Shown here piece after piece: positions 4,614 through 60,599 of a stretch of 64,000 nucleotides of DNA. Under the pieces are notes generated by a model. It was not told the DNA's origin, did not search any database, and saw only the letters and a list, made by a program, of their open reading frames with translations. The translations under genes were made by a program, and so were the position numbers. Numbering within the stretch: the stretch's first letter is position 1; each line of letters opens with the position of its first letter. Source of the stretch: an uncultured Bacilli bacterium (lineage in GTDB: Bacteria > Bacillota_I > Bacilli_A > RF39 > UBA660); contig CAKOLD010000001.1 in the NCBI GenBank assembly GCA_934096015.1, positions 27,069-91,068 on the forward strand, given 5' to 3'.

Positions 4614-4637
4614 GAATGCGCACACATTCCTATTTTT
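4613..4637 (+). terminator. rho-independent terminator hairpin, GGAATG-cgcaca-CATTCC then TATTTTT
   Basis: Perfect 6-bp stem followed by a T-run. It sits between the converging small ORFs and smpB. Confidence 0.5.
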
Positions 4638-5064: not shown

Positions 5065-7162
5065 CTTTATCACCATCAACCAAAACAAAATCAATAGTAC
5101 GTGCTTCTTTACTAGCAGCGACACATTTAACAGTTACTTTATCACCAATTCTATAAGTTTTTTTTGTATTTTCCCCAACTAAACTTAATAAATTTTCCTC
5201 ATAATTATAATAATCGCCTTTCAGTGTGTTAACATGAACTAATCCTTCAACTAAATTATCAAGTTGTACAAAAAAGCCAAAATTAGTAACTGTGTCTATT
5301 ACACCATCATATATTTCGCCAATTTTATCTTCCATATATTCGGCCATCTTCATATCATCAACTTCTCTTTCGGCTTCAACACTTTTTTGCTCTCTTTCAC
5401 TAGCCTGTTCAGCAATTGTAACCAAATTTGTATCCCAATAATTTATCGTTTCTCTTGATAAATCGTGGTCAAAAAGATAAGTTCGTAGTAATCTATGCAC
5501 GATTAAATCAGGATATCTTCTGATTGGAGACGTAAAATGTGTATAACATGAACTAGCTAAACCAAAGTGACCTATATTTTCCTTTTGATAAATAGCCTTT
5601 TTCATACTACGTAAAAGCATACTGCTTAATATTTTATATTCTGGTTTATCACTTAACTCTTCTAATAGTCTTTGCATATCTTTAGGGCTTACTGAATTAT
5701 ATTTTCCTTTAATAGTATAGCCTAATAAACTAATTAATTTTAAAAACTGTTCTATTTTCTCACTACTTGGTTCTCCATGAGTCCTATAAATAAACGGTAA
5801 ATCCATATTAAAAATATGAGTAGCTACAGTTTCATTAGCAGCAATCATAAAATCTTCAATAAGTTTTTCTCCATCTTCTCTGACTCTTTTTTCAATAGCA
5901 ACAACTTTTTTATTCTTATCAACAATAATTTTTGGTTCATCCAAATCAAAATTAATGTATCCTTTTCTCTCTTTATGTTTTCTCAAAATATGAGCAAGTT
6001 CATTCATTTCTAATAAAGTATCCTTGTATTCTGTGTATTCAGGATCAACAATATTTCTCATCAATATATCATTTACTTTTGCATAAGTCATTTTAATTCT
6101 TGACTTAATAAATGAAGGAAAAATGTTATAATCAACGACGTCTCCCTTAGAATCTATTTTCATTTCACAACTTATAGTTAGTCTTACTTGATTTGGATTC
6201 AAAGAACATATCCCATTGGATAATTTATGTGGTAACATCGGAATAACACTATCAGCTAAATAACTGCTTGTTCCACGTGCTAAAGCATCTACATCCAGTG
6301 GACTATTCAAAGAAACATAATGGCTAACATCAGCAATATGAACCCCTAACCAATAAAAATCTTTTTCTTTTTTTATACTAATCGCATCATCTATATCTTT
6401 AGTATCAGCACCATCTATAGTAAATATCATTTCTTGAGTTAAATCTGTTCTTCCTACTTTTTCTTGTTCACTTACTTCATTAGGCATATCTTCTGCCTGT
6501 TGCATTGATTCTTTGCTAAACTCTTCAAATATTCCATATTTATACGCAACTGTTTTTATATCAACTCCAGGATCATCCTTGTGACCAATAACAGTAACTA
6601 CACGTCCATAATAACGATTTTTACTAAGTTCTTTAATCAAAGAAACTAAAACTTTAGTTCCATCAACTAAACCTCTAGAACTAACTTTATCTAAAACTAT
6701 TTCAAGATCCTTTTTTTCATCATCAAGTTTAATAAAAACATCATCATTTTTGTTAACAATTTCACCTATAATATTTTTTAAATTTCTATTTAAAATTCTA
6801 ACTACTCGACCTTCAGTTTTATTCTTTTTATTATTTAGTTCCACTAACACATAATCTTCATTTACTGCCCCATTCAAATCGTCTTTAGCAATATAAATAT
6901 CTTCTTCATCTGGTAAAACTAAAAAACCAAAACCTTTTTTATTAACATCTAGTTTTCCTAATTTAAAGTTAGGACAATTTTTATATAAAACATATTTTTC
7001 TTTATTAGTTTTATACATAACATTTTCTTTGTATAGTTCTTCCAAACTATTTTCTAAATCTTTTAATTCTTGAGGAGTTTTTAAGCCTAACAAATCATTT
7101 ATTTCAATCAAAGTCAAAGCTTCCTTTTCTTGTTCCATTACACTAATTATTTTATCCTTCAT
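5048..7162 (-). CDS. rnr: ribonuclease R
   Basis: 704 aa with an RNB catalytic region ([26 protein letters not shown]) and C-terminal S1-like and basic domains. Confidence 0.9.
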
Positions 7163-8710: not shown

Positions 8711-8816
8711 TATATAATCTCCTAACAATAAAATTATAAATTATTTGTAAATTATTAGCAAGTTTTATAAAAAAAATATAAAATCATGCTATAATTGTAT
8801 AAAGGAAGGTGTGCAT

Positions 8817-10094
8817 ATGAGAATAATAGAATTAAAGATTGAAGAATTCGACGAATATTCATTAAATAGTAAACTAGGAAACTATTGCCAAACCTCTCTT
8901 TATGCTAAAGTAATGGGAGAATTGGGTTTTGATTATGATTATATAGCAATGATCGACGATACTAGAGAAATTGTCGCAGCCTCTTTAATACTTTACAAAA
9001 AAATTGGAATCTTCTATAAATATGCATACGCACCAAAAGGTTTTTTAATTGACTATGAAGATGAAGAATTATTAAAAACTTTTATTAAATTATTAAAAAG
9101 TTACTACAAAAAAAGAGGTTTTGTTTTAATAAAAATCAACCCAGAAATTATCATTGGAAACTTAAATAATCAAACTTTAAAAATTACCCAAAACGATAGC
9201 AATTATTTAATTGATACCCTTAAACAACTAGGATTTAAAAGAAGAAAAGAAGTAGACCCTTTTGATCTATTAATGCCAAGATTATCTGCATTCATAAATA
9301 TCAGAGATTTTAAATTAAATGATATAGACAAACGCATTAGAACAAAAATTAAAAATGCTCAAAATAAAGGATTAGTATTAGAAGTCGGAACAGTGGACAA
9401 CATTGAAACTTTTTATGGTTTTGTAAAAAATAAAGTAAATAGAAGTATTGATTACTATAGAAACTTTTACAATGTATATAAAAAAGACAATAATATTGAC
9501 CTCCTACTAGTAAAAATTGACTACGAAGCATATTTAGAAAATGCTAAAAATAAATACCAAGAAGAATTAAATAGAAATGCAGAATATAACGAAAAAATCA
9601 AAAATGATCCAAGCGACAAAAACATGAATGAAAAAATGAATTCTGATAAAAATGTCATTGAATATAAAAAAGATTTAGTAGAAGCAACTGAAGGACTAAA
9701 AAACAGAAAATTTGCTTATGTTGCTGGAGCTCTTGTAATAAAATATAAAGACAAGGTTAGTATTCTTGCTAGTGGCTACGACCCTAAATATAAAGATTCT
9801 AATGCAAATTATTTTCTACATAATGAAATAATTGAAAGATATAAAAGTGACTATGATTATTTAGATATGGGAGGAATTGGTGGAGACTTCTCAGAAGATA
9901 GTAGATACTATGGATTAGATAAATTTAAACTGAATTTTAATCCAGAAGTTGTAGAATATATTGGAGAATTTGATTTAATAACTAATAAATTTGCCTTTAA
10001 AAGTTTAGAAAGTAATAATACTTTAGAAGCTGAATTTTTAAAATCTAAACCCTCTGGAAAAATAACTAAAGAAGAAAAAAATGAAAATAGCTAA
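8817..10094 (+). CDS. FemAB/FemX-family aminoacyltransferase (peptidoglycan interpeptide bridge formation)
   Basis: About 425 aa with the FemABX acyltransferase fold pattern (N-terminal LYAKVMGELGFDY ... YAYAPKGF) and a central coiled-coil insert. AAGGAAGGTG RBS precedes the ATG at 8817. The track ORF begins at a GTG at 8811. Confidence 0.7.
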   Translation: MRIIELKIEEFDEYSLNSKLGNYCQTSLYAKVMGELGFDYDYIAMIDDTREIVAASLILYKKIGIFYKYAYAPKGFLIDYEDEELLKTFIKLLKSYYKKRGFVLIKINPEIIIGNLNNQTLKITQNDSNYLIDTLKQLGFKRRKEVDPFDLLMPRLSAFINIRDFKLNDIDKRIRTKIKNAQNKGLVLEVGTVDNIETFYGFVKNKVNRSIDYYRNFYNVYKKDNNIDLLLVKIDYEAYLENAKNKYQEELNRNAEYNEKIKNDPSDKNMNEKMNSDKNVIEYKKDLVEATEGLKNRKFAYVAGALVIKYKDKVSILASGYDPKYKDSNANYFLHNEIIERYKSDYDYLDMGGIGGDFSEDSRYYGLDKFKLNFNPEVVEYIGEFDLITNKFAFKSLESNNTLEAEFLKSKPSGKITKEEKNENS

Positions 10095-15775: not shown

Positions 15776-16921
15776 TTGCAAAACATAAAATGTAAAGAAG
15801 GGAGTAAATCATTGAATAATTGTGATATAAGAAAAAATCCATCATGTTGTAATAATTTTCCTAATCCTCAAATAGGACCTACGGGACCTACAGGGCCTTT
15901 TGGACCAACAGGTCCTCAAGGTATTCAAGGCATTCAAGGTATTCCAGGAGAAACTGGACCTACGGGACCTCAAGGTATTCAAGGAATCCAGGGTATTCAA
16001 GGTATTCCGGGAGCTGTTGGAGCAACAGGACCTACGGGACCAACGGGACCTCAAGGAACTGCTGGAACTCAAGGAGTTACTGGTCCGACTGGACCTCAGG
16101 GAGAAACAGGACCTACGGGACCAACGGGACCTCAAGGAACTGCTGGAACTCAAGGAGCTACTGGTCCGACTGGACCTCAGGGAGAAACAGGACCAACGGG
16201 GCCAACAGGTCCTCAAGGAATAACCGGAACTCAAGGAGTCACCGGTCCGACTGGGCCTACGGGGCCAACGGGCCCAACAGGCCCTGCTGGAACTGCAGAT
16301 ACCATAAGTATAGGAAATGTAGAAACTGGAGACGCAGGAACTGCAGCACAAATAACAGACACTGGAAGTGGAACTAATCACATTTTAAATTTTGTGATTC
16401 CTAAAGGCACTACTGAAACTACACAACGTAATGCCTACCTGGTTACATTTAATGAAAACAATCAAAATCCAATAGATGTATTAAGCAACAACAAAATTCC
16501 ACTTACAAAAAAAGAAATAGATATAACAAATATAGTAACTCTAGACCCAACAGATAATACAATTCAATTTAATGTTCCGGGGTACTATCAAATCAATTTT
16601 ACTGCTTTTGCATATGCAAGTGATAATGGAAGAGATTTTGATCAAACAAAAGATTTTGTATCTATCGGATTAAGAACGGCTGGTACAGACGACATATATG
16701 TTGGTGCTAGTAAATGGACAAATTCAACAATAGCCACTGAAATAACGGGCCAAGGAATAATTTCAGTACCAGATATTTCTACTCCATTTGAATTAGTAAA
16801 CTTAAGCCCTAGTACTATTCACTTAACAAGTCCAGATATGAATTATATTAAATCAAGTTCATATTTTACAAACCCACTAGTAACTATTACAATTGAATAC
16901 TTAGGAAGACAAAATATATAA
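15776..16921 (+). CDS. BclA-like collagen-triple-helix repeat protein (exosporium/surface glycoprotein candidate)
   Basis: The N-terminal region is followed by about 150 residues of G-X-Y repeats dominated by GPT/GPQ/GIQ triplets. The C-terminal domain of about 200 aa is non-collagenous and beta-rich. The likely start is the TTG at 15812, downstream of a GAAGGGAG RBS. Confidence 0.7.
16028..16207 (+). repeat. tandem 90-nt direct duplication inside the collagen-like region (30-aa unit [16 protein letters not shown](V/A)[13 protein letters not shown])
   Basis: Two near-identical 90-nt units with 1-2 mismatches can be read directly at 16028-16117 and 16118-16207. Confidence 0.8.
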
Positions 16922-18246: not shown

Positions 18247-18321
18247 GGGTCTATAGCCAAGTGGTAAGGCATGGGACTGCAACTCCCTGATTCGTTGGTT
18301 CAAATCCGACTAGGCCCTCCA
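18247..18321 (+). tRNA. tRNA-Cys (anticodon GCA)
   Basis: Acceptor stem GGGTCTA/TAGGCCC, discriminator T and encoded CCA. D-loop AGCCAAGTGGTAAGGC. Anticodon loop CTGCAAC. T-arm GGTTCAAATCC. Confidence 0.85.
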
Positions 18322-21920: not shown

Positions 21921-22273
21921 TGGTGGAGCCGAGCGGAATCGAACCGCTGTCCAAAATAACTTCAAAATAACGTCTACAGGTTTAGTTAGAATTAAAATTT
22001 CATTAATAAAAAAGTATCTAACAAACTATTTATTAACTAAGTTTATAAATTATTCATTTTTTAATCTAAACAAATTAAAAAATATATCTTGTATATATGA
22101 ACCAAATATTAATCTACAAGAAAACCAATATTCAGCGCCAAAATTGCTAAATTAAGCAAATGCTAAGGCAGTATTATAATTATTGTCAGTTAATTTAAAC
22201 TGTGCTACTTAGGATTAGCTACCACCTGCAATTAAATCAAAACATTATTCTGTCGAAACCAATAAACGGCCCC
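21921..22273 (-). ncRNA. ssrA: tmRNA (ssrA), about 353 nt
   Basis: Minus strand 5' end is GGGGCCGUUUAUUGGUUUCGACAG. The 3' end GGUUCGAUUCCGCUCGGCUCCACCA gives a tRNA-Ala-like acceptor/T-arm. The internal tag reading frame GCA CAG UUU AAA UUA ACU GAC AAU AAU UAU AAU ACU GCC UUA GCA UUU GCU UAA gives the tag AQFKLTDNNYNTALAFA. Confidence 0.85.
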
Positions 22274-22645: not shown

Positions 22646-22900
22646 TCAATTATTTTTGTTGAATTTTACAGAAAATTTTACATAAGATTCTCCAAATACA
22701 AAACCTATTATTAACAAAATTTTATTATAAATATGAATATCAGCATAATTAAATTTATAAAAACAAAAAACAAATAATAAAGTAATTACCAAAAAATAAC
22801 CAATTTTTAAAAAAATTTTTTTTCTTCTCAGAAGACGATATATTATTCCGCAAACAAGGCCATAAAAAAATGAAAATAATAAATAAGCAAATTGCGTCAT
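22646..22900 (-). CDS. yabQ: YabQ-like small membrane protein (spore cortex biogenesis)
   Basis: 84 aa with about 3 TM helices. Positioned between the yabP and divIC homologs. Confidence 0.45.
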   Translation of the reverse strand: MTQFAYLLFSFFYGLVCGIIYRLLRRKKIFLKIGYFLVITLLFVFCFYKFNYADIHIYNKILLIIGFVFGESYVKFSVKFNKNN

Positions 22901-23184
22901 TATTTAAATAATTTACTAAATACAGATGATTCTTTTATACTATCTGAATCTAAATAATTTATCATATTAATTTTACCTTTTATTGAAACATTTCCTTCTA
23001 AAGTATCTAATTTTATCATTTCTAATGATTCTCCTTTTATTATCATCAATCCCATAGTTGTATCTAAAGAAAATTCTTTATCATCAAAATTATTAATTTT
23101 TTTTACTCCAGATAAAACTATATTTTTTCTTTCATTTATTTTTACAACATGATTAAAGTTTCCTACATCCATTATTTTATCCAT
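22900..23184 (-). CDS. yabP: sporulation protein YabP
   Basis: The motif VLSGVKKINNFDDKEFSLDTTMGLMIIKGESLEMIKLDTLEGNVSIKG resembles the YabP family. Its start overlaps the yabQ stop. Confidence 0.65.
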   Translation of the reverse strand: MDKIMDVGNFNHVVKINERKNIVLSGVKKINNFDDKEFSLDTTMGLMIIKGESLEMIKLDTLEGNVSIKGKINMINYLDSDSIKESSVFSKLFK

Positions 23185-23249: not shown

Positions 23250-23531
23250 TTATTCAGAATCTTTTTTATTATATTCTTCAAATATTGCATCTTCAAACAT
23301 TTTACGTGCATCTGGATTTATAGGATGAACGATATCTCTATATTCTCCAACTGGTGTTTTCTTGCTTGGCATTGCAATAAATAAACCATTATCTCCTTCA
23401 ATAATTCTAATATCATGTACTGCAAAAGATTCATCTAAAACTACAGATGCAATCCCTTTCATACGTGATCCTTCCTTGTCATACTTACGAACAATTACAG
23501 ATGTAATTTTCATAACACTCACTCCTCTCAA
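23250..23531 (-). CDS. spoVG: septation/stage V sporulation protein G
   Basis: MKITSVIVRKYDKEGSRMKGIASVVLDESFAVHDIRIIEGDNGLFIAMPS is a classic SpoVG sequence. Confidence 0.9.
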   Translation of the reverse strand: MRGVSVMKITSVIVRKYDKEGSRMKGIASVVLDESFAVHDIRIIEGDNGLFIAMPSKKTPVGEYRDIVHPINPDARKMFEDAIFEEYNKKDSE

Positions 23532-23577: not shown

Positions 23578-23787
23578 TTAAATATAATATAGTGAAATAT
23601 CTTTAATTAACACTTCTGAAAAAGAAAAACTTTTAGTTTCTACTCCATCAGATACAGTAAATATATTGGGATATATACCATTAATTATCCCAACAAAAAC
23701 ATCAGATTTATTTCGACAACATTTGGTTACTACTTTTACTCTTTTACCAAGATTTTCTTTCATATCATTTCTTATATCTTCTATCAT
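23578..23787 (-). CDS. veg: Veg protein (biofilm/stationary-phase small protein)
   Basis: IEDIRNDMKENLGKRVKVV...GRNKS..VGII.G.YPNIF.V resembles the Veg family. 69 aa. Confidence 0.75.
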   Translation of the reverse strand: MIEDIRNDMKENLGKRVKVVTKCCRNKSDVFVGIINGIYPNIFTVSDGVETKSFSFSEVLIKDISLYYI

Positions 23788-24554
23788 GATCTCGGATAGC
23801 CCACATACATCATTCCATTAGATTTTAAGCCACCCATACCATCCTTTCCATATTTAGTTTTTTCTAACATTTCAATTAAATTAACTTCCTTATTTTTTTC
23901 AGTTAATGCAACTGTAACTGCAATAATTGCAGGATCTAATGCATGAATATTAATCCTTTTAGGACTTGAAGCATAATTAGCACCACTTTTTATCAATTCT
24001 TCATAATCACTCTGGCAAGCTCCTGCTATAACTACTAACTTTTCATGACTCTTCTCATAAATTCTGGCATTTTTTACAGACTTAACAAAATTTAAACTAT
24101 TTTTATAATTTGTAATGTCATCCACATCACCTTTTTTTCTATAATATGCATCATGACCAGTAATAATAACTATATCAGGGTGATATTGTTCTAAATAATT
24201 TATTATTTTACTAGGTAGCTCAGACTCCTTAATTGCTTTGCCAACAGCCATAACACCTGCCTTTTTATAAAATTCTAAGCACCTATTCAAATATTCTTTA
24301 TCACCATCAAAATGTAAAATTTTAGCTGGCAAATAAAAATAATCGTCCCTTTCAGAATATAAATCAACTATTTCAAACTCATCTTCTTTTCTTTCATAAT
24401 CTACAAGCTCCAAATCAGTTAAAAAACTATCTGCAAATAAGCGAACATCTACACCTTTTAAATAATAAATATTATTTTTTATATTAATTACTTTAAATAC
24501 AGTATCATTATTGTAACTATTTCTAGTTACGTAATCTCCCTTTTTTATTTCCAT
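23784..24554 (-). CDS. yabG: sporulation-specific protease YabG (peptidase U57)
   Basis: IKKGDYVTRNSYNNDTVFKVINI...YHPDIVIITGHDAYY matches YabG. Conserved position ksgA-yabG-veg. Confidence 0.75.
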   Translation of the reverse strand: MEIKKGDYVTRNSYNNDTVFKVINIKNNIYYLKGVDVRLFADSFLTDLELVDYERKEDEFEIVDLYSERDDYFYLPAKILHFDGDKEYLNRCLEFYKKAGVMAVGKAIKESELPSKIINYLEQYHPDIVIITGHDAYYRKKGDVDDITNYKNSLNFVKSVKNARIYEKSHEKLVVIAGACQSDYEELIKSGANYASSPKRINIHALDPAIIAVTVALTEKNKEVNLIEMLEKTKYGKDGMGGLKSNGMMYVGYPRS

Positions 24555-25978: not shown

Positions 25979-26761
25979 TCATAACCCAATTTCTATGTCA
26001 AAAATTTCCTTAACATTTTTATTAGTAATTCTTGCTATTTCATCTAAAGAAACGTCAAATAAATTCGCTAAAAATAAAGCAATTATTTTTATGTTTTTTG
26101 GACTATTTTGAGAACCACGATAAGGAACTGGTGCTAAAAAAGGTGAATCAGTTTCTAACACCAAGTGTTCTAAACCTACTTTCTTTATAACATCTTTAAG
26201 ATTACAGTTTTTAAAAGTTATTACTCCATTAATTCCAAGTTTATAACCCATTTTTACGTACAACATAGCTGTTTCGTAACTGCCATTAAAACAATGAATA
26301 ACTCCTTTAAGATTATATTTTTTTAATATATTTATAGTATCCTGTGTTGCTTCTCTAGAATGTATTACCACAGGATAATTATATTTTTGAGCCAAGTCTA
26401 ATTGATACTCAAATAACTTTATTTGTTCTTTTTTATTATTTTTATCATGATAATAATCTAAACCAATTTCACCTATAGCAATTATTTTACTAGTACTTAT
26501 ATTTTTAATAATGTTGTCTAAAACACTATAATCTTCAAAAACATTATCAGGATGAATTCCAAGACACCCATATATATTTTCATAAGTTTCTGATAATTTT
26601 AAAACTTCTCCAATAGAACTTATATTATCTGATGCAACAAAAAATTTATTAACATCATTTTTAAAAGCTTCAAACAAAACCGGTTCTAAATTATTATAAT
26701 ATTCATTATATAGATGACAATGAGTATCAATAAATTTATAATTCATACTATTCATTTTCAA
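25979..26761 (-). CDS. tatD: TatD-family metal-dependent DNase/hydrolase
   Basis: FIDTHCHLY...GEIGLDY...VIHSR... are TatD motifs. Immediately downstream of metG, as with B. subtilis yabD. Confidence 0.85.
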   Translation of the reverse strand: MKMNSMNYKFIDTHCHLYNEYYNNLEPVLFEAFKNDVNKFFVASDNISSIGEVLKLSETYENIYGCLGIHPDNVFEDYSVLDNIIKNISTSKIIAIGEIGLDYYHDKNNKKEQIKLFEYQLDLAQKYNYPVVIHSREATQDTINILKKYNLKGVIHCFNGSYETAMLYVKMGYKLGINGVITFKNCNLKDVIKKVGLEHLVLETDSPFLAPVPYRGSQNSPKNIKIIALFLANLFDVSLDEIARITNKNVKEIFDIEIGL

Positions 26762-27080
26762 TTCTCTGAAATAAAATTTCTGGCTTTTTCAAAAGTGTAC
26801 CTGATTTATAATTACCAAATTCTTTTGCACTATCGTATGTTTTTAAATTACAATTTATTAAATCAAAAATTTTCTCAGCAGTATCTGGCAAAAAAGGTTG
26901 TAAATATACCGTACATATTCTAATTGATTCAATAAGATTGTACAATACAGTTTTTAATCTATCCGCCATATTTTCATCTTTTGCCAACAGCCAAGGAGTT
27001 GTTTCATCTATATATTTATTACAGCTTCTTAAGCAAAAAAATACTTCATCAATTGCTTCAGAAATTTTTAATTTATCCAT
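26748..27080 (-). CDS. metG: methionyl-tRNA synthetase, C-terminal anticodon-binding fragment (separated from the catalytic part by an in-frame TAA)
   Basis: SCNKYIDETTPWLLAKDEN aligns to the MetRS anticodon-binding helix bundle. It is in the same frame as 27126..28280. Confidence 0.65.
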   Translation of the reverse strand: MDKLKISEAIDEVFFCLRSCNKYIDETTPWLLAKDENMADRLKTVLYNLIESIRICTVYLQPFLPDTAEKIFDLINCNLKTYDSAKEFGNYKSGTLLKKPEILFQRIENE

Positions 27081-27125
27081 TTTGTTTTTAAAATGATTAG
27101 GTAACTCTAAAATTTTACATTTTAA

Positions 27126-28280
27126 TTATTCATCAATAGGTAAAGAAACATTTTTATTTTCTACAATCCCATCAAAATATTTATAACTCATTGAGATAGT
27201 TCTATTAACCAAATTTCCCAATATATTTGCTAAATCAGAATTATTTCTTTCTATTATCAAATCTTCTGTAATAACTCCATCATCTGCAAAAGGAATTTCA
27301 TGAAGTACAAAATATCTTATAGTATCTACCCCATATTTATTAACCAACTCATCAGCATACAAAATATTTCCTTTACTTTTGCTCATTTTGTCACCACCAG
27401 AAAGTAACCACGGATGTCCAAAAACTTGTTTAGGTAAAGGTAAATCCAAAGCCATTAAAATTATTGGCCAATAAATAGTATGAAATCTAATAATATCTTT
27501 ACCAATTAAATGTAAATCCGCAGGCCATAATTTTTTGAATTCATCAGTAATAGAATCAGTATCATATCCAATATTAGTAATATAATTAGTAAGCGCATCT
27601 AACCAAACATAGATAATATGTTTTTTATCAAAAGTTACTGGGATCCCCCATTTAAAAGAAGTTCTAGATACACATAAATCTTGCAAACCAGGTTTTAAAA
27701 AATTATTAATCATTTCGTTCTTTCTTGATTCTGGTTGTATAAATTCATTGTGATTTTCAATATATTCAATTAACCTGTCTTGATACTTTGATAATTTAAA
27801 AAAATAAGCTTCTTCACTCTTTTTACTTACATCACGTCCACAATCAGGGCATTTACCATTAATTAATTGAGTTTCTGTAAAAAATGATTCACAAGGAACA
27901 CAATACCATCCTTCATATTTTGATAAATAAATATCTCCTTGTTCATATAATTTATTAAATATTTTTTGAACTTTTTCTTCATGTTGTTTATCAGTAGTCC
28001 TAACAAAACGATTATAAGTTGTATTCATTAAATCCCAAATATTCTTAATTTCATCAGCAACTTTATCCACATATGTTTGTGGTGTTACACCAGCTTCTTT
28101 TGCTTTTAATTCAATTTTTTCTCCATGTTCATCAGTACCAGTCTGAAAATAAACGTCATATCCTTCTAATCTCTTATTTCTTGCTATAGCATCTGCCAAA
28201 ACTATTTCATATGTATTACCAATATGTGGTTTACTAGATGTATAAGCTATTGCAGTAGAAATATAATATTTTTCTTTCAT
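27126..28280 (-). CDS. metG: methionyl-tRNA synthetase, catalytic N-terminal portion (HIGH and KMSKS motifs)
   Basis: PHIGNTYEIVLADAIAR is the HIGH region. Zn knuckle CPDCG. KMSKSKGN. It ends with TAA at 27126-27128, 15 codons before the in-frame downstream fragment. Confidence 0.85.
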   Translation of the reverse strand: MKEKYYISTAIAYTSSKPHIGNTYEIVLADAIARNKRLEGYDVYFQTGTDEHGEKIELKAKEAGVTPQTYVDKVADEIKNIWDLMNTTYNRFVRTTDKQHEEKVQKIFNKLYEQGDIYLSKYEGWYCVPCESFFTETQLINGKCPDCGRDVSKKSEEAYFFKLSKYQDRLIEYIENHNEFIQPESRKNEMINNFLKPGLQDLCVSRTSFKWGIPVTFDKKHIIYVWLDALTNYITNIGYDTDSITDEFKKLWPADLHLIGKDIIRFHTIYWPIILMALDLPLPKQVFGHPWLLSGGDKMSKSKGNILYADELVNKYGVDTIRYFVLHEIPFADDGVITEDLIIERNNSDLANILGNLVNRTISMSYKYFDGIVENKNVSLPIDE

Positions 28281-28283: not shown

Positions 28284-28530
28284 AATTTCTCCTTCCATAA
28301 TAAAAAACATGAACAAAAGGACGAAAAAATTCCGCGATACCACCTTTATTCATGTTTTAGCATGCTCTCAAATTTTTAACGCAATTAACGATTTAAACTC
28401 CAGAACCATGTTCATTGTTTTTTTATAATTCTCTTTCACCATTTAAGAACTCTCTAAATATAAAGCCACAATTACTCTTTCCTTCTTCGTCTAACAAGTG
28501 TATTCTAACATAATATTATTTTTTATACAA
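28284..28530 (-). promoter_or_regulatory. T-box riboswitch leader (Met specifier) upstream of metG
   Basis: Minus-strand T-box sequence AAAGGUGGUAUCGCGGAA (plus 28330-28348). Intrinsic terminator ACAUGAAUAAAGG...CCUUUUGUUCAUGU plus U-run overlaps the antiterminator. AG-box GAAAGAGUA. Candidate specifier AUG-A in CAAUGAACAUGG. Confidence 0.7.
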
Positions 28531-28532: not shown

Positions 28533-29039
28533 TTAATTTACTAACAAATTTAATACATTCGACAATAACAAATGAACATCAGTTGTTAAAATTTCTTTTA
28601 CCCTAATCATTATTAAACCTAACACACAACCGTCATCAATAACGCATTTAACATACACTTTACCACTTAAAAAATAATCTTCACAAATATCTATACCACT
28701 AGGATAATCCTCAGACTTATATTCCTTTGCCAATTCAATTAACACATTTGAAACTTTTTTATTAATAATTGATTTATCAATTCCGTCACTGCAAGCTACA
28801 ATTTTCTCTTCACTTACAAATATTAAATCATAATCTGATATATGCTCAAATAAATCTATTAACTCTCTCATTTTATTTATATCTAATAAATTCTTACTTT
28901 TAGTTATAATTAAATTGCCATTTTCCAGTTTCATATCTAAAAGTTCGCCAGAGTTAAAATTTAATTTATTTCTAAATTCTTTAGGAATAACTATTCTACC
29001 TAAATCATCTATATGACGTCTAAAACTAAAATGCATCAT
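28533..29039 (-). CDS. spoVT: SpoVT/AbrB-family transcriptional regulator (stage V sporulation protein T-like)
   Basis: N-terminus RRHIDDLGRIVIPKEFRNKLNFNSGELLDMKLENGNLIITK is a swapped-hairpin AbrB domain. A roughly 120 aa GAF-like C-terminal domain follows. It lies next to mfd, as in B. subtilis. Confidence 0.75.
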   Translation of the reverse strand: MMHFSFRRHIDDLGRIVIPKEFRNKLNFNSGELLDMKLENGNLIITKSKNLLDINKMRELIDLFEHISDYDLIFVSEEKIVACSDGIDKSIINKKVSNVLIELAKEYKSEDYPSGIDICEDYFLSGKVYVKCVIDDGCVLGLIMIRVKEILTTDVHLLLSNVLNLLVN

Positions 29040-36163: not shown

Positions 36164-37732
36164 CTAATTAATTTCTATTATATCACCAAAAACTTCTTTT
36201 GCATCTTGTTCTACAGAATCTAACGTGCCATCCTGTTTTTGCTCGTCTTCTTCAATATAATGATCATATTTATTTTTATTGACAATATAATCTTTTTTTA
36301 TTTTATTACATTCTTCAGTAAATAAACAAATAAATTTATATGTCTTATTTTCAATTTTCTCAAATTCTCGTTCTAACAAATTTAAATTATTATTAAAAAT
36401 AATGCTATCACTTTGTATATCGGTGGAAAAAATAACATTACTATCACTAACTACTTCCACAGTAGCAGAATTAACATAACCAAGCAAATTATAATTATTA
36501 TATTCGCCTAATTTATAAATGAAATCTTTCCAATATTCACAAAATTGTTGTTTTAAAGATTTTTGAGCTCCATAAAAAGCATTATTAATTCTTATAAATA
36601 AAAAATTATCATCAATTTTATTAGTTTTTATTTCCCGGGAAATATTTTTTTCTACTTTTTTTTGGGAAATATTTTCTTTTTTTGCTATTTTAGGCTGATT
36701 TCCTTGAAAATATGTTAAAAATGAAATCAATAATAAATTATAAGCATTTTCCACTAATTTCAACTTTGTCTCTATATCAAATAAATCATCTATTATTTTT
36801 TTACAAAAATCAAAATCGTAATCAACATCATCATTACCTTTTTTTATACTTATACTCTGATCAATCAAATATGACAACATTTCATCAACTAAAGAATTAA
36901 TATCAATTCCTTGAATTTGTATTTCTTGAAAAATTTTTAAAAATTCTTCTATATCATTTTCATAAATAGCCTTAATTATTTTATCAATATACTGATTAGA
37001 AACTAATCCAAATGTTTCATTAATAATTTCTACTGTTATATTATTTGTAATTTTTGACAATTGATCAAGATAACTTAAACAATCACGTAAACAACCATCT
37101 GACATTGTAGCTAACAAATCTACAGAAGCATCATCAATGTCTATATTCTCTTTTTCAGCAATAAATAAAAGATGTTCTCTTATTTCTGAATTAGTCAATT
37201 TTTTAAAATCAAAACGTTGACAACGCGATAGCACAGTTATAGGTACCTTTTGAATATCAGTAGTAGCAAAAATAAAAATAACGTGCGCTGGAGGTTCCTC
37301 TAAGGTCTTCAAAAATGCATTCCAAGCACTATTAGACAACATATGAACTTCATCAATAATATAAATCTTATATTTAGACATAGATGGCACTAACTTTACA
37401 TTATTTCTGATTTCTCTTATTTCATCAACACCATTATTGCTGGCCGCATCAATTTCAATAATATCTGGATTTTCAGAAAAATTTAAACAATTCTTACATT
37501 TGCCACAACTATCCCCATTAACTGGAGAAAGACAATTCAAAACCTTAGCAAATATTTTTGCAGTACTTGTTTTACCAGTTCCTCTTGGACCAGTAAATAT
37601 ATATGCATGTGCAATTTTATCTTTTACAATAGAACCAATAAGAGTCTCTTTTACAAATTCTTGACCCACTAATTCCCTAAAATTTTGTGGTCTATATTTT
37701 CTATATAAAACTTTATAACCCATTCTAACCAC
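36164..37732 (-). CDS. dnaX: DNA polymerase III subunit gamma/tau
   Basis: YRKYRPQNFRELVGQE...HAYIFTGPRGTGKTSTAKIFAK are AAA+ clamp-loader motifs. 522 aa. Confidence 0.9.
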   Translation of the reverse strand: MVRMGYKVLYRKYRPQNFRELVGQEFVKETLIGSIVKDKIAHAYIFTGPRGTGKTSTAKIFAKVLNCLSPVNGDSCGKCKNCLNFSENPDIIEIDAASNNGVDEIREIRNNVKLVPSMSKYKIYIIDEVHMLSNSAWNAFLKTLEEPPAHVIFIFATTDIQKVPITVLSRCQRFDFKKLTNSEIREHLLFIAEKENIDIDDASVDLLATMSDGCLRDCLSYLDQLSKITNNITVEIINETFGLVSNQYIDKIIKAIYENDIEEFLKIFQEIQIQGIDINSLVDEMLSYLIDQSISIKKGNDDVDYDFDFCKKIIDDLFDIETKLKLVENAYNLLLISFLTYFQGNQPKIAKKENISQKKVEKNISREIKTNKIDDNFLFIRINNAFYGAQKSLKQQFCEYWKDFIYKLGEYNNYNLLGYVNSATVEVVSDSNVIFSTDIQSDSIIFNNNLNLLEREFEKIENKTYKFICLFTEECNKIKKDYIVNKNKYDHYIEEDEQKQDGTLDSVEQDAKEVFGDIIEIN

Positions 37733-38191: not shown

Positions 38192-38212
38192 TATAAACAT
38201 CCTTTTACTAAT

Positions 38213-38292
38213 AAAAAAAGCGCACATCAACAGAGGTTGTTATGGCTGCTGTCTTCCGACTCTGACCAGGTTTCAACTTATCAATTGCGCAA
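38213..38292 (-). ncRNA. ffs: small SRP RNA (4.5S/scRNA-type, ffs)
   Basis: Minus-strand ACCUGGUCAGAGUCGGAAGACAGCAGCC matches conserved domain IV, including the GGAA tetraloop. It is closed by the GCGCA/UGCGC helix and followed by a U-tract. The tadA-scr-dnaX position is conserved with B. subtilis. Confidence 0.6.
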
Positions 38293-38333
38293 ATAAATTA
38301 TAACAAATTTAAAGTTAGTTAACAACCCTATGG

Positions 38334-45957: not shown

Positions 45958-47316
45958 TTATCCAATTTTTTCTTTAATTTGTTTAATCTGTTCATTCAAT
46001 TCTTCATTAGTTTTTAATTCTTCTGTTACCTTTTCTATAGCATGTAGAACGGTTGAATGATCTCTATTTCCAAACTCTAATCCGATCCTAGAAACTGTTT
46101 CTTCAGTAGTCATTCTGCAAATATACATTGCGATTTGTCTAGCATTATTAATATCCGCAGTTCTTTTTTTACTTTTTAAATTATCAACAGTTAAATTAAA
46201 ATATTCTGCAACTCCCTTTTGTATCTTAATTATATTATTAGTTCCATAATAGGATTTTCCTAAATAATCTTTTAAAGCTTCAGTTGCAAATTCTAAATTT
46301 ATGCATTGTGGAGACATTATTGCCGCATAAGCATATAATCTTGTTATTGCACCTTCTAAGTGTCTAACATCACTTTCACAATTATTCGCAATATATTCAA
46401 TAACTTCATTTTGAACTAATTTTGCTACTTCGTGCCCTGCCATCTTATCCCGTAATATTTTACATCTTAATTCAAAATCTGGTGGAAATATATTGACCGT
46501 TAAGCCCCATCTAAATCTCGTTCGTAGTCTATCTTCAAGCAATTTTAAATCATCAGGAGATCTATCACTACTAATAATAATTTGTTTATTAGAGTCATAT
46601 AAAGTATTAAATGTGTGAAAAAATTCTTGCTGTGTTTTTTCAGCTCCACCTAAAAATTGAATATCATCAATTATTAAAACATCTATATTTCTGTATTTTT
46701 CTTTAAAATGATCAACAATATCATAATTATCAGTATTTTTTTTGTTAATTCCAATAAAATCAGAAATAAATTCTTCACTTGTAACATATAAAACATTTAA
46801 ATCTGAATGGTCAACAATATAATTTCCTACAGCGTGCATTAAATGAGTTTTCCCCAGCCCACTCTTTCCGTGGATAAAAAGAGGATTGTATATTTTTCCA
46901 GGCTGTTCAGCAACCGCAACAGCTGCTGTTTGTGCAAATCTATTAGAATCCCCTATTACAAAATTTTCAAATTTATATTTAGGATTTAAGTTAGAATTAA
47001 AATTTCTTTCTTTATTTGAAATATCATCTAAAGATCTTGTTACTTGCTTTTTTTCATCTATTTCCTCATGAATTAAAAACTCCAAATCATAAGTATTTCC
47101 AGTCAAACTAGTAATAATCTCTTCAATTAAGTCATAATATGTAGTAGACAAAAATGTTTTATGAAATGACATTGGAACTTCGATAACTAATTTATCATCT
47201 TCCATAGAATACAATTTAGTATCTTTAAACCAAGTATCATAAGAAACACTCATCAATTTGTTCTTTATAACCTTTAAAAAATTATTCCAAAGTGTATCTT
47301 TGTCCAAAAAAACCAC
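45958..47316 (-). CDS. dnaA: chromosomal replication initiator protein DnaA
   Basis: NPLFIHGKSGLGKTHLMHAVGN is the AAA+ Walker A. The C-terminal DnaA-box binding domain includes VDNLKSKKRTADINNARQIAMYICR. Confidence 0.97.
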   Translation of the reverse strand: MVFLDKDTLWNNFLKVIKNKLMSVSYDTWFKDTKLYSMEDDKLVIEVPMSFHKTFLSTTYYDLIEEIITSLTGNTYDLEFLIHEEIDEKKQVTRSLDDISNKERNFNSNLNPKYKFENFVIGDSNRFAQTAAVAVAEQPGKIYNPLFIHGKSGLGKTHLMHAVGNYIVDHSDLNVLYVTSEEFISDFIGINKKNTDNYDIVDHFKEKYRNIDVLIIDDIQFLGGAEKTQQEFFHTFNTLYDSNKQIIISSDRSPDDLKLLEDRLRTRFRWGLTVNIFPPDFELRCKILRDKMAGHEVAKLVQNEVIEYIANNCESDVRHLEGAITRLYAYAAIMSPQCINLEFATEALKDYLGKSYYGTNNIIKIQKGVAEYFNLTVDNLKSKKRTADINNARQIAMYICRMTTEETVSRIGLEFGNRDHSTVLHAIEKVTEELKTNEELNEQIKQIKEKIG

Positions 47317-47616
47317 CCCGCATTCATGACACCTTTTTCTACAGATAATTTTAAACTACTTTTTCACAAAATAAAAGACAAAATTTTTAAAATTTGCAAA
47401 ATCCACAAAATATCAACATAATTTTCAACACACAACATCACTAAATAAGCTAAAAAACAAACTTTTCAACATTTTCCACAAATTGAAATTCACATCAATA
47501 TTAAAATTTCCACAATTAACGTTTAAAAATAAATTAAAATAAAAATCAAAATAAAATTGACATCTAAAGAGTAATGTTGTAGAATAAAGTAGCTAAAAAG
47601 AGGTGGAGGTGTCAAA
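47317..47616 (+). promoter_or_regulatory. dnaA-rpmH intergenic region: oriC-type cluster of co-oriented DnaA-box-like 9-mers (TTNTCCACA variants) plus dnaA/rpmH promoters
   Basis: AAATCCACA at 47399-47407, TTTTCCACA at 47472-47480, ATTTCCACA at 47506-47514 and TTTTTCACA at about 47360. The background is very AT-rich. A perfect TTATCCACA also sits at 45949-45957 in the dnaA-dnaN spacer. Confidence 0.5.
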
Positions 47617-47739
47617 ATGAAAAGAACTTATCAACCAAATAATCGTAAAAAGAGTAAAAAACATGGTTTTTTTGCTAGAAAAGTAACGAATATTTTAAAA
47701 AATAGAAGAAAAAAAGGACGTAAACGTTTATGCAAATAA
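47617..47739 (+). CDS. rpmH: 50S ribosomal protein L34
   Basis: [54 protein letters not shown]. Below the ORF-track length cut-off. Confidence 0.9.
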
Positions 47740-47740
47740 T

Positions 47741-47762
47741 ACCACATTTATGTGGTTTTTTC
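47741..47762 (+). terminator. hairpin ACCACA-ttta-TGTGGT plus TTTTTT between rpmH and rnpA (attenuator/terminator)
   Basis: Perfect 6-bp stem immediately followed by a T6 run. The rnpA RBS GGAGG follows at 47768. Confidence 0.5.
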
Positions 47763-47779
47763 TTCATTTGGAGGCAAAA

Positions 47780-48097
47780 ATGAAAAAAGAAGAAAGAGTG
47801 AAGGATAATATTTTATTTAATGACATTATCAAAAAAGGCCTAAAATTACAAAATAAATATTTTATTATATATTATAAGGATAATAATTTAGAGAAAAGTC
47901 GTTTTGGTATTGCAGCTGGAAAAAAATTAGGAAATGCAGTTACAAGAAACAAACAAAAAAGAAGAATTAGGATGTTATTAGGTGAAAATAAAAAATTATT
48001 TGAAAAAAATAGAGATTATATTATAATAATAAAAGAAGCATGTCTTAAAGCCAAATTTGATATTCTTCAACAAGAAATAAAAAATATAATGAAATAG
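47780..48097 (+). CDS. rnpA: ribonuclease P protein component
   Basis: MKKEERVKDNILFNDIIKKG...RFGIAAGKKLGNAVTRNKQKRRIR is the RnpA RNR motif region. Start is taken at the ATG at 47780 after GGAGG. Confidence 0.85.
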   Translation: MKKEERVKDNILFNDIIKKGLKLQNKYFIIYYKDNNLEKSRFGIAAGKKLGNAVTRNKQKRRIRMLLGENKKLFEKNRDYIIIIKEACLKAKFDILQQEIKNIMK

Positions 48098-48104
48098 GTG
48101 GAAA

Positions 48105-57692: not shown

Positions 57693-58748
57693 ATGAGAGA
57701 AAGGTTAGAAATTATTGAAAATCGTTTTAAAGAACTGAATGAAGAATTAATGGATCCAGAGGTTTTAAATAATTATCAAAAAATGAAAAAATTATCTAAA
57801 GAACGCAGTGATTTAGAAGAAATTATAAAGGAATACAACGAATTAAAAAAATTAGATCAAGATATAAAAGAATTAAAAGAAATGCAAAATGATCCAGAAA
57901 TGGCAGATATGGTAGGAGAAGAATTAGCATCCTCTCTCGAAAAACAAAAAGATTTAGAAAAATCATTAGAAATTTTATTAATTCCAAAAGATGAAAATGA
58001 TGGTAAAAATATAATAATGGAAATAAGAGGAGCTGCTGGCGGAGATGAAGCAAACATTTTTGCTGGAGACTTATTTAGAATGTATTCAAAGTATGCAGAA
58101 AGAAATAATTGGAAAATTGAAATTACAAATTCTGTAGAAGGATCTAGTGGAGGATATTCACAAATCGAATTTTCTATCAAAGGTGATAACGTTTACTCTA
58201 AATTAAAATTTGAAAGTGGTTCTCATAGAGTTCAACGTGTACCAGAAACAGAAACTCAAGGAAGAATCCACACATCAACAGCAACAGTGTTAGTTATGCC
58301 AGAAGCAGAAGATATAGATTTTGAACTTGATATGAGTGAGATCAGAATAGACATTACAAGAAGTAGTGGATGTGGAGGTCAAGGAGTAAATACAACGGAC
58401 TCAGCTGTAAGATTAACTCATATACCAACAGGAATCATAGTATATTCTCAAACAGAACGTAGTCAAATAAAAAATAAAGAAAAAGCAATTCAGATTATGA
58501 AAACAAGACTTTATAATAAAAAATTAGAGGAGCAACAAGAAAAGGAAGGCGCAGAAAGAAAAATTAAAATAGGAACAGGCGATCGTTCTGAAAAAATTAG
58601 AACATATAATTATCCTCAAAATCGTGTTACGGACCATCGAATAAATTTTAGCGTGATGGAACTTGATAGAGTAATGGAAGGACATTTAGAAGCTATAATA
58701 GAAGCCTTAATAACAGAAGATCAAAGGATTAAATTAGAAGGAAAATAA
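57693..58748 (+). CDS. prfA: peptide chain release factor 1
   Basis: GGQ motif SGCGGQGVNTTDSAVRLTHIPTGI. AGGAGG RBS. Confidence 0.95.
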   Translation: MRERLEIIENRFKELNEELMDPEVLNNYQKMKKLSKERSDLEEIIKEYNELKKLDQDIKELKEMQNDPEMADMVGEELASSLEKQKDLEKSLEILLIPKDENDGKNIIMEIRGAAGGDEANIFAGDLFRMYSKYAERNNWKIEITNSVEGSSGGYSQIEFSIKGDNVYSKLKFESGSHRVQRVPETETQGRIHTSTATVLVMPEAEDIDFELDMSEIRIDITRSSGCGGQGVNTTDSAVRLTHIPTGIIVYSQTERSQIKNKEKAIQIMKTRLYNKKLEEQQEKEGAERKIKIGTGDRSEKIRTYNYPQNRVTDHRINFSVMELDRVMEGHLEAIIEALITEDQRIKLEGK

Positions 58749-59458
58749 TGGATGCTACTGAAAAAGTAATAATAGAAAAATATGGAGAAAAAGCTTTAGA
58801 AAAATATAAAAAGAAAAATTATCCACTTCAATACGTTTTAGGAAATGTAAACTTTTATGGATATGATTTCTTAGTGAATAAAAATGTTTTAATACCAAGA
58901 TTTGAAACAGAATTATTAATAGAAAAAACAATAAATTATTTAAAAAAATATAACATATTAAATCCAAATATCTTAGAAGTTGGAACAGGATCAGGTTGTA
59001 TAGCAATTACACTAAAAAAATATTTTCCAACATCCACCATTGATGCCATAGATATCAGTAAAAAAGCTCTAAAAGTAGCAACCAAAAATGCTGATCTTAA
59101 TAACGTAAATATAAATTTTTATAAAAAAGACATAAATAAATTTTCTAATAATCAAAAATATGATCTGATAATTAGTAATCCCCCATATTTAAAAAAAAGT
59201 GATGAAGTTTCTAAAAATACTAAATATGAACCAAAAAAAGCCCTATACGCTAAAGATAAAGGATTACAATTTTATAAAATAATAATAAATAAACTTAAAC
59301 ATAATTTAAATAATAAATTTATAATTGCTTTTGAAATAGGAATTGATCAAGGAGAATATCTTAAAGAATATGCCAAAAATCAGTTTCCATATTCTACAAT
59401 CTTAGTTGAAAAAGACTATTCAAATAGAGATAGATATCTTTTCATTATAAATGAATAA
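58748..59458 (+). CDS. prmC: release factor glutamine methyltransferase PrmC (HemK)
   Basis: VGTGSGCIAI and NPPYL motifs. Start is coupled to the prfA stop (TAATG). Confidence 0.85.
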   Translation: MDATEKVIIEKYGEKALEKYKKKNYPLQYVLGNVNFYGYDFLVNKNVLIPRFETELLIEKTINYLKKYNILNPNILEVGTGSGCIAITLKKYFPTSTIDAIDISKKALKVATKNADLNNVNINFYKKDINKFSNNQKYDLIISNPPYLKKSDEVSKNTKYEPKKALYAKDKGLQFYKIIINKLKHNLNNKFIIAFEIGIDQGEYLKEYAKNQFPYSTILVEKDYSNRDRYLFIINE

Positions 59459-59506
59459 AATTTTTAAATACTACCCAATATTAATTTAGAAAGGTAGTGT
59501 TTTTTT

Positions 59507-60028
59507 ATAAAAAAAATAATAATAATTACTTCCATAATAATATCATTTTTAGTAATCACAAAAAAAGAAACTGAAATTAAAATACCAATAGAATCAATAA
59601 GAATCAGGATAATAGCCAATAGTAATAGTGTTGACGATCAAAATATAAAATTAAAAGTCAAAAATAGCATAGAAAAATATTTATATTCATTAACACAAAA
59701 TAGCAATTCATTAGAAGAAACAAGAGAAATTATAAAAAGTAATATAAATAATATAGATGAATTAACAAGAAAAACTTTAAAAGAAAATAATTTTAAAACA
59801 AATTACACAATAAAATATGGATTAAATTATTTTCCCAAAAAGGAATATAAAGGAGTTAATTATTCTGAAGGAAATTATGAATCACTAGTAATAATTCTTG
59901 GAGAAGGAAATGGAGAAAATTGGTGGTGTGTTTTATTTCCTCCACTTTGTATGATAGATGCAGAAGAAAATCAAAGTGAAGTTGAATATAAATTTATTGT
60001 TGAAAAAATAATTAAGCATTTTATGTGA
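59507..60028 (+). CDS. spoIIR: stage II sporulation protein R homolog (SpoIIR), with no canonical start codon in frame
   Basis: The open frame from 59498 encodes signal-like KKIIIITSIIISFLVIT, then SIRIRIIANSNSVDDQNIKLK and ...NYESLVIILGEGNGENWWCVLFPPLC. These match the SpoIIR signatures AIRLRILANSDS...DQ and GANWWCVLFPPLC. No in-frame ATG/GTG/TTG follows the TAG at 59495-59497. The start at ATA 59507 is a guess. Confidence 0.55.
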   Translation: MKKIIIITSIIISFLVITKKETEIKIPIESIRIRIIANSNSVDDQNIKLKVKNSIEKYLYSLTQNSNSLEETREIIKSNINNIDELTRKTLKENNFKTNYTIKYGLNYFPKKEYKGVNYSEGNYESLVIILGEGNGENWWCVLFPPLCMIDAEENQSEVEYKFIVEKIIKHFM

Positions 60029-60059
60029 AAATCATAATAGAATTAAATAGGAGGAATAC

Positions 60060-60599
60060 ATGAAAGAATTTTTTCTTCTATTTTTAATTGCTATTGGATT
60101 AAGCATGGATGCTTTTTCTCTTTCTTTAGGATTTGGTACCTTAAATATGAATAGCAAACAAATCATAAGAGCAAGCATCTCAGTAGGAATTTTTCATTTT
60201 TTAATGCCGCTAATTGGATTAAGTATTGGGAGTTATTTAATAGAAATCTTAAAATTAAATTCCAATTTTATAATGGGTATCATTTTATTATTCATATCTT
60301 TAGAAATGTTAATTGAACTTTTTCAAAAAAAAGAATCAAAATTAACCAAATCTTTTATGGGAGTAATTCTTTTTTCTTTTAGTGTTAGTTTAGATGCTTT
60401 TTCTATAGGAATAGGATTAGAAGCAATAACTAACAATTATATTTTATCTTCATTTATATTTTCTATCGTTAGTTTTTCTTTCACGTTCCTAGGTTTACTG
60501 CTAGGAAAATATTCCATAAAATATCTTGGAAAATATGCTCAAATTATTGGAATAATTCTCTTATTTGCAATAGCCATTGTAAATTTATGTCAAATTTAA
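60060..60599 (+). CDS. MntP/YtaF-family membrane protein (DUF204 repeats; putative Mn2+ efflux or sporulation membrane protein)
   Basis: Two DUF204 repeats carry the SMDAFS/SLDAFS motif (GLSMDAFSLSLG and SVSLDAFSIGIG). About 6 TM helices. Confidence 0.65.
   Translation: MKEFFLLFLIAIGLSMDAFSLSLGFGTLNMNSKQIIRASISVGIFHFLMPLIGLSIGSYLIEILKLNSNFIMGIILLFISLEMLIELFQKKESKLTKSFMGVILFSFSVSLDAFSIGIGLEAITNNYILSSFIFSIVSFSFTFLGLLLGKYSIKYLGKYAQIIGIILLFAIAIVNLCQI

Follow-up and report, generated by a model that had tools for sequence, protein, structure and literature searches.

How is a gene translated when its reading frame offers no canonical start codon? The question is posed by spoIIR, which encodes a secreted sporulation signal protein, in a 64,000-nucleotide stretch of DNA from an uncultured gut Bacilli bacterium (GTDB lineage RF39; UBA660; GenBank assembly GCA_934096015.1, contig CAKOLD010000001.1, positions 27,069 to 91,068 of the forward strand). 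This whole stretch is referred to here as the window, and positions are counted from its first nucleotide. Comparison with related loci indicates that translation most likely initiates at an ATA codon (59507), behind an extended Shine-Dalgarno (SD) sequence that lies partly within a conserved leader hairpin (Table 1).

A spoIIR gene without a canonical start codon

The open reading frame (ORF) that follows prmC is spoIIR. Window positions 59498-60025 of the plus strand translate to CFFIKKIIIITSIIISFLVITKKETEIKIPIESIRIRIIANSNSVDDQ...GENWWCVLFPPLC, and the product matches the Pfam family Spore_II_R (PF09551) with 143.3 bits against a gathering cut-off of 25 (residues 33-156 on positions 4-127 of the 128-position model), which bears out the statement of an earlier note on this DNA that a clear SpoIIR homolog follows prmC. 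The NCBIfam equivalog TIGR02837 aligns over positions 11-166 of its 168 with 150.5 bits (cut-off 151.9). The N-terminus, as read from the sequence, carries a basic and hydrophobic signal or anchor segment, (I)KKIIIITSIIISFLVITKKE, that aligns with the MKK plus hydrophobic stretch of relatives.

The spoIIR frame opens past a TAG at 59495-97, and its first in-frame ATG, GTG or TTG is codon 152 of 176, preceded by 151 codons. This confirms the earlier claim that none of the three codons stands ahead of the signal peptide, and a downstream canonical start is ruled out since none occurs before codon 152. The window has 68 stop-to-stop ORFs that reach 100 codons; spoIIR is the sole real gene among them without an early canonical start, and the program-made ORF list of the window contains no plus-strand ORF at spoIIR. 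The earlier note overlooked a GTG at 59497-99, which is one base out of frame here and would be in frame if the run of seven T residues that follows it (T7) had six (T6).

The T7 run was checked by exact look-up of the window PrmC, which returned four longer contigs (L093-L096) from four other metagenome samples, one of them Hadza gut. All four are 100% identical to window positions 59401-60100 (700 bp), T7 included, although samples and assemblers differ, so that T7 is not an assembly error; the allele has been seen in at least five samples of different cohorts. Gene callers place no gene between prmC and mntP on these four contigs. A SpoIIR of 99% identity, called as 'MFFIKK...' (P0001), emerged from a protein search; it is encoded on the only T6 copy of the window species, L001, an 857-bp contig of 1.3x coverage that is 99.6% identical, has the GTG in frame and carries two further singleton mismatches. 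T7 is the normal sequence of the window species and L001 is the outlier. By the earlier note's own criterion, a closely related strain whose start comes into frame once a single base is altered would count against its claim, and L001, with T6 and GTG, is formally such a copy; its weight is lessened by the five assemblies (the window and four independent contigs) that carry T7 and by a GTG that is too near the SD for a good start. The anomaly at spoIIR is real and reproducible.

Probable position of the start codon and Shine-Dalgarno spacing

In the protein alignment, the Met of the outgroup 'MKK...' aligns with the Ile of '(MFF)IKK...'. The outgroups are contig-scan relatives of at most 57% identity among the matches listed, with no close relatives there. 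At the nucleotide level, the codon at the ATA/ATT position is ATG in ~46 more distant relatives and TTG in ~12 (~58 in all), straight after the stem and a T-rich run. The ATA/ATT state itself occurs in at least 11 sequenced lineages, with ORFs under purifying selection.

Spacing from the extended SD also points to this codon. In the aligned register, ATA lies at a spacing of 9 with T7, 8 with T6 and 7 with T5 (a run of five), and the GTG at -1. The SD-bearing genes of the window have aligned spacings mostly of 5-9, with a mode of 7. Few ORFs of the window whose SD run is 4 or longer start at spacings of 2 or below, and these starts are all non-genuine calls, SD-embedded GTGs included. Initiation is therefore most likely at ATA 59507, the only possible and well-placed start, whose use we infer from the relatives' ATG/TTG site, the well-spaced extended SD and the spread of the state over at least 11 lineages; the rare non-canonical start that the earlier note had raised as one option is supported in this specific form.

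SD-embedded, in-frame GTGs also precede true ATG starts elsewhere in the window, as AAGGT-GTG-CAT-ATG at 8811 (8811-8819, plus strand) and as GAGGT-GTG-GTT-AGA-ATG at dnaX (36164; 37724-37732, minus strand). Such GTGs lie 3-6 nt ahead of the real ATG, and longest-ORF calls would gain 2-3 false residues from them, like the 'MFFIKK' SpoIIR. A scan of metagenome contigs with the DNA pattern GAARGGTWGTGTTTTT yielded, among the at least 120 matches listed, none upstream of a spoIIR.

Run length and selection in sister species

The leader of sister species is kept as ...TTAGAA(A/G)GGTAGTG-Tn-AT(A/T)-AAAAA(A/G), with n varying. T6 is found in L002-L005 (four samples), L091, L092, L079, L051 and L059 and, by inference, at the loci of all 'MFFIKK' proteins; T5 in L006, L087, L088 and L089/L090 (the last from two samples and two assemblers); and T7 in the window and L093-L096. 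The GTG is in frame only with T6 and out of frame in T5 and T7. Run length is species-specific and fixed within species (T6 in L002-L005, T5 in L089/L090, T7 in the window and L093-L096), and in a neighbour-joining tree the T5 lineages are scattered among T6 lineages.

The spoIIR ORF is intact in all T5, T6 and T7 lineages, with pairwise ratios of nonsynonymous to synonymous substitution rates (dN/dS) of 0.09-0.22. This includes pairs in which both members are T5 (L088/L089, dN/dS 0.18 at dS 0.62; L087/L006, dN/dS 0.15). When neutral evolution is simulated to 10% divergence, this AT-rich ORF is closed in 98% of cases. Indels are confined to the run upstream of ATA, and the A8, A7 and A6 runs within the ORF are never shifted. 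With its variation outside the coding part and the ORFs intact, the T-run therefore behaves as untranslated sequence.

At T5 and T7 loci, gene callers shorten the protein (P0006, P0015) or pass the TAG as Gln (P0004, P0011). The latter two products (191 amino acids; L006 36-611 and L088 28-603, both ENA contigs) run from an ATG within the final part of prmC, with the leader TAG translated as Gln, and their loci do not translate to those products under code 11; they look like a gene-calling artefact of an alternative genetic code. TAG read-through or recoding from ATG 59451, which these entries suggested, was rejected because the products are not translatable from their own DNA under code 11. 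In the window, ATG 59451 is in a different frame that ends at a TAA.

A covarying hairpin that includes the Shine-Dalgarno sequence

The leader hairpin is real, and its helix includes the SD. ACTACC (59470-75) pairs with GGTAGT (59493-98), and when A-U and G-U pairs are counted the helix covers 59466-76 and 59492-502, with a minimum free energy (MFE) of -10.3 kcal/mol (z = -2.5 against shuffles). A hairpin with z < -2 against dinucleotide shuffles is found at this site in 25 of 43 non-redundant leaders, and its arms vary by lineage (AATGTTACC/GGTAACATT, AAACCTCAC/GTGAGGTTT, AATCGTTCC/GGAACGATT and CACAACC/GGTTGTG). A covariance model built from ten clade leaders retrieved 23 leaders (E <= 0.004), each as a plus-strand match at the spoIIR leader; at the genome loci among them, the model match lies directly upstream of the protein match. 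In the alignment of these 23, 92.9% of cells pair, against 82.6% in shuffles and 44-55% when the partner columns are slid, and both partners have changed in 7 of 11 pairs, where 3.0 +/- 0.9 would be expected; none of 500 shuffles reaches the observed values. The covariance-model alignment is fitted to the structure and these counts thus lean towards it, whereas the per-sequence z-scores are independent of any alignment. It was used instead of a MAFFT-only alignment (A2), which misaligned the 3' arms.

Leaders with the end of a co-directional prmC no more than 70 nt away have the hairpin more often than others (14/23 versus 4/18, Fisher p = 0.025). Approximately 40% of related spoIIR leaders (L007-L086) have no hairpin and form an 'AGGTGATAAn-ATG/TTG' class in which prmC is less often directly upstream and the promoter-like motif G[AT]ATA...CAxTATT is kept; the motif is therefore general and the hairpin a context-linked add-on.

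Like Rho-independent terminators, the stem is flanked by an A-run and a U-run and stands right after a stop codon. It differs from them in a loop of 13-18 nt with conserved sequence and in having only 6-9 strong stem pairs, and in the window a 15-nt loop accompanies the U-tract and A-tract where an intrinsic terminator would have a G+C-rich stem, a loop of 3-8 nt and a U-tract. A simple terminator scan of 59200-60200 called none, the leader has no Rfam match at gathering or E <= 1 thresholds, and a simple sigma-70 scan of the region was uninformative. The earlier note had described the SD as lying in a hairpin that resembles a prmC terminator. This description holds in that the hairpin covaries and is enriched where prmC abuts spoIIR; it overlooked the promoter-like -10 element in the loop.

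A promoter-like motif in the hairpin loop

The loop keeps CA(A/T)TAT(T/A) despite the variation of the arms, with G(A/T)ATA 17-19 nt upstream. G[AT]ATA occurs 43-54 nt ahead of the start in ~38 of 43 leaders, and the bipartite motif G[AT]ATA-N17-19-CAxTATT is matched at five or more of six positions in 58% of leaders, compared with 1.7% of random 75-nt windows. It is also retained in L091, where the upstream sequence differs. The forespore sigma factors recognize GHATR-N18-CATXHTA (sigma-G) and GCATR-N15-GGHRARHTX (sigma-F), and the leader motif resembles what we take to be this forespore-type consensus. The arrangement suggests that the own transcript of spoIIR starts inside the loop, at a predicted position near 59488-59491, which would leave the SD free.

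Proposed mechanism and alternatives

On balance, the locus is probably a functional spoIIR that starts at AUA behind an extended SD, within a conserved hairpin that blocks read-through and carries a promoter in its loop. In this scheme, spoIIR would serve an uncultured spore-forming gut Bacilli lineage of ~25% G+C in which the ancestral ATG was replaced by ATA (ATT in some sister species) and the initiator tRNA would still start at 59507. The extended SD, AGAAAGGUAGUG, 9 nt upstream in the aligned register, would direct initiation at AUA, and spoIIR output may be a modest fraction of the AUG level. The T-run would be the untranslated spacer between SD and ATA, and T5, T6 or T7 would be allowed in different species for that reason. 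The upstream GTG would be merely the 3' end of the SD and of the stem, in frame only by the chance of T6, and the database 'MFFIKK' N-termini are probably three residues too long. In RNA reading through from prfA-prmC, the hairpin and U-run would terminate transcription and/or hide the SD. A forespore-type promoter with its -35 element at the prmC stop and its -10 element in the loop, proposed from motif conservation only, would give spoIIR an mRNA that begins past the 5' arm, and the SD would therefore be free in that mRNA.

Several points weigh against this account. The TIGR02837 score is 1.4 bits under the equivalog cut-off, and spoIIGA and sigE lie outside the 64-kb window. The assembly is either imperfect or from a decaying strain, as a private nonsense codon in metG (described below) indicates. 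Most lineages have T6 with an in-frame GTG, a state that recurs across three deep branches (L051/L059, L079 and the main clade), and these T6 lineages may use the GTG. If T5 and T7 are very recent, ORF integrity tells little about function. AUA is a weak initiator, with ~1-2% of the AUG yield in Escherichia coli, and the spoIIR start is proposed from comparative evidence, unlike the starts of established AUA/AUU genes. The bipartite motif had no further matches upstream of other window genes, the spoVT-like gene included, and the assignment to a forespore sigma factor is presumptive.

If translation instead truly begins at GTG 59497, with Phe-Phe encoded by the T-run, T7 would be a recent one-base frameshift that silences spoIIR, and the species would recently have lost the ability to sporulate or would switch on sigma-E independently of SpoIIR. 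The commonness of T6 with in-frame GTG across three deep branches favours this explanation, as do the calls themselves (MFFIKK on T6 contigs, no gene at all on T7 contigs) and the nonsense codon in metG of the same assembly; the T7 copies do not differ from one another and decay could still be hidden, which makes silencing conceivable for the T7 species alone. However, the GTG stands 2 nt past AAAGG, at an unworkable aligned spacing of -1, and the T5 lineages would have to be four more independent pseudogenes, yet they are intact with dN/dS of ~0.15-0.18 at dS 0.6-1.3 where neutral drift closes the spoIIR ORF within a few percent divergence. Indels restricted to the run upstream of ATA, with the A8, A7 and A6 runs of the ORF unshifted, intact yabP and yabG, and a T7 allele present in at least five samples of different cohorts also speak against it, and we regard it as unlikely. 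The start-loss pseudogene, marking erosion of the sigma-E activation pathway, that the earlier note offered beside a non-canonical start is likewise unsupported: the ORF is intact, T5 lineages have stayed open over dS ~0.6 and both yabP and yabG are intact.

Mixed use, in which T6 species start at both GTG and ATA/ATT or predominantly at GTG, T5 and T7 species start at ATA/ATT only, and run length tunes or switches SpoIIR output, has a small but appreciable chance of being correct. Both codons are conserved, T6 predominates and the ATA spacing shifts from 7 to 9 with run length; against this, conservation of the GTG is already explained by pairing with CAC of the 5' arm and by SD complementarity, and run length is fixed within species, with no sign of phase variation. 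Initiation at GTG followed by slippage on the U/T run (RNA-polymerase stuttering to T6, or +1 ribosomal frameshifting), giving a low, programmed amount of SpoIIR, would account for a homopolymer of lineage-dependent length directly between GTG and ORF. It is very improbable: T5 needs a shift of opposite sign to T7 and its GTG frame ends after three codons (GTG TTT TTA TAA), GTG initiation is still required at an unworkable SD spacing, and there is neither a conserved out-of-frame ORF nor a stimulatory structure downstream. Homopolymer runs of 5-7 are short for efficient slippage. We give almost no credence to an assembly or sequencing error that conceals a true T6 run with an ordinary GTG start. 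L001, 99.6% identical with T6, and the private TAA of metG (GAA in other samples) could be read in this way, but T7 recurs in four independent assemblies at 100% identity over 700 bp, and L001 is a 1.3x contig with two other singletons; the sequencing-error explanation was rejected on the strength of the four T7 contigs.

An extension of AUA initiation to the whole clade is tentative and rather doubtful at this stage: all members would run spoIIR by one compact module, comprising a forespore promoter through a covarying hairpin, a read-through block, SD-dependent AUA/AUU initiation and an evolvable U-tract. If true, the U-tract would be at once a terminator tail and a T5/T6/T7 spacer between SD and start that sets the amount of a forespore signal protein, every 'MFFIKK' N-terminus of the clade would be a gene-caller artefact, and SpoIIR would join infC and ccpN as a conserved gene with a non-canonical start in Bacilli.

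Comparison with known systems

The SpoIIR described here shares with the canonical proteins of Bacillus and Clostridia the domain, the N-terminal hydrophobic segment, the IRxRxIANS and NWWCVLFPPLC motifs and the prfA-prmC-spoIIR neighbourhood. It lies ~12 kb from oriC, similar to Bacillus subtilis, where spoIIR is origin-proximal and this location is important for its function. It differs from canonical SpoIIR in having no canonical start codon and in its host, a reduced, very AT-rich uncultured gut Bacilli lineage.

Both an AUA/AUU start with an extended SD and a hairpin at the ribosome-binding site have experimental precedents in Bacilli. In Staphylococcus aureus, infC, ccpN and citZ start at AUA and cvfC1 at AUU, extended SDs have been reported for infC, cvfC1 and ccpN, start choice tracks aligned spacing, and the non-canonical start of ccpN is also conserved in B. 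subtilis (bioRxiv 10.1101/2025.06.19.660503). In E. coli, AUA and AUU yield ~1-2% of the AUG level (10.1101/063800). The spoIIR locus has in common with these genes, and with E. coli infC and pcnB (both AUU), an AUA/AUU codon at the start position, unusually long SD complementarity at proper aligned spacing, conservation of the odd codon across related species and an expected damping of the translation of a regulatory protein. Unlike them, spoIIR encodes a secreted sporulation signal protein, its SD is half of a hairpin and an upstream GTG misleads gene callers. As far as literature searches show, spoIIR is not among the previously listed AUA/AUU-start cases.

The second precedent is the leader of B. 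subtilis sigG (spoIIIG), where a weak start codon keeps expression low and transcripts begun at the forespore promoter of sigG itself are unable to form the hairpin (PMC5942855). Like sigG, spoIIR would be a forespore-expressed sporulation regulator downstream of a co-directional operon, with a weak start codon. The spoIIR leader differs in its proposed -10 element in the hairpin loop, the terminator-like U-run after the stem and a proposed AUA start instead of GUG.

Implications for sporulation and annotation

The timing, dose and compartment of SpoIIR are critical in B. subtilis. If the proposed mechanism is correct, an AUA/AUU start combined with a read-through-proof leader would indicate that strict damping and insulation of this signal are selected even in reduced, uncultured gut lineages, and the very few bacterial genes with conserved non-canonical starts would be joined by a sporulation gene. 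Standard gene callers go wrong at spoIIR in several ways: the gene is overlooked on T7 and T5 contigs, cut short, prolonged across the TAG or, with T6, given three spurious residues. Automatic calls of sporulation capacity for these gut metagenome-assembled genomes can therefore be wrong.

Features and other genes of the window

Table 1. Features of the spoIIR locus in window coordinates.
Feature	Position	Strand	Remarks
prfA	57693-58748	+	Precedes prmC; PCRF/RF-1 also upstream in syntenic loci
prmC (release-factor glutamine methyltransferase)	58748..59458	+	Stop TAA 59456-58; ORF and methyltransferase Pfam matches; upstream of and co-directional with spoIIR
GAATA, -35-like element of forespore-type (sigma-F/G-like) motif	59453..59457	+	Overlaps prmC stop; putative function
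Hairpin 5' arm AAATACTACCC	59466..59476	+	MFE fold; covariation (23-leader alignment A5); compensatory T>A / A>T double change in L079
CAATATT, -10-like element in hairpin loop	59476..59482	+	Putative; loop conserved while arms vary
Extended SD AGAAAGGTAGTG	59488..59499	+	10/12 positions match the ideal AGAAAGGAGGTG; 59492-59499 (3' two-thirds) in hairpin 3' arm
GTG	59497..59499	+	Called start ('MFFIKK') in T6 relatives; part of SD and stem; aligned spacing -1
T7 run	59500..59506	+	Terminator-like U-tract and proposed untranslated spacer between SD and start; T5/T6 in sister lineages
ATA, proposed initiation codon	59507..59509	+	Homologous to relatives' ATG/TTG start; protein alignment, leader tables, 9-nt spacing
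spoIIR coding sequence	59507..60028	+	173 codons, then TGA 60026-28; N-terminal KK and hydrophobic segment, then Spore_II_R domain
mntP-like gene	60060..60599	+	Downstream neighbour of spoIIR; own AGGAGG SD; murA next

The window has ~25% G+C and contains the replication origin region, with a change of sign in GC skew near 48 kb. The origin region (45958-48100) has dnaA-dnaN-recF-gyrB-gyrA on its minus side and rnpA, yidC-like, jag-like, mnmE, mnmG and rsmG genes on its plus side. Within the window, yabP and yabG, both sporulation-specific, score above their NCBIfam equivalog cut-offs. Minus-strand genes of the window at 22900-23184, 23250-23531, 23784-24554 and 28533-29039 comprise yabP, yabG and spoVG, all intact, and an AbrB-domain protein that is weakly like SpoVT (41.7 bits versus a cut-off of 235.9). 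Gene order resembles the origin-proximal region of B. subtilis (metG-tatD-...-ksgA-yabG-...-spoVG-...-pth-mfd-spoVT).

The methionyl-tRNA synthetase (MetRS) gene metG (26748-28280, minus strand), with a T-box leader at 28314-28496, has an in-frame TAA at 27126-27128 that separates a 384-amino-acid catalytic part and a 110-amino-acid anticodon-binding part in one frame. Three other contigs encode a full-length, 99% identical MetRS of 510 amino acids with Glu (GAA) at this codon, and the truncated 384-amino-acid product is encoded on one NCBI/ENA contig only; exact look-ups of the truncated MetRS returned no record. The TAA is a private G>T change: either the assembly has a wrong base here or the strain carries its own nonsense mutation in an essential gene.

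A collagen-like gene with Gly-X-Y repeats (15776-16921, plus strand) has weak matches to Scl/Lcl collagen-like adhesins and is overlapped by long spurious ORFs in other frames, typical of repeat DNA. Rfam searches at gathering thresholds detected a transfer-messenger RNA (21921-22273, minus strand), a small signal recognition particle RNA (38204-38301, minus strand) and one tRNA (18247-18318, plus strand), and smpB lies at 4636-5124.

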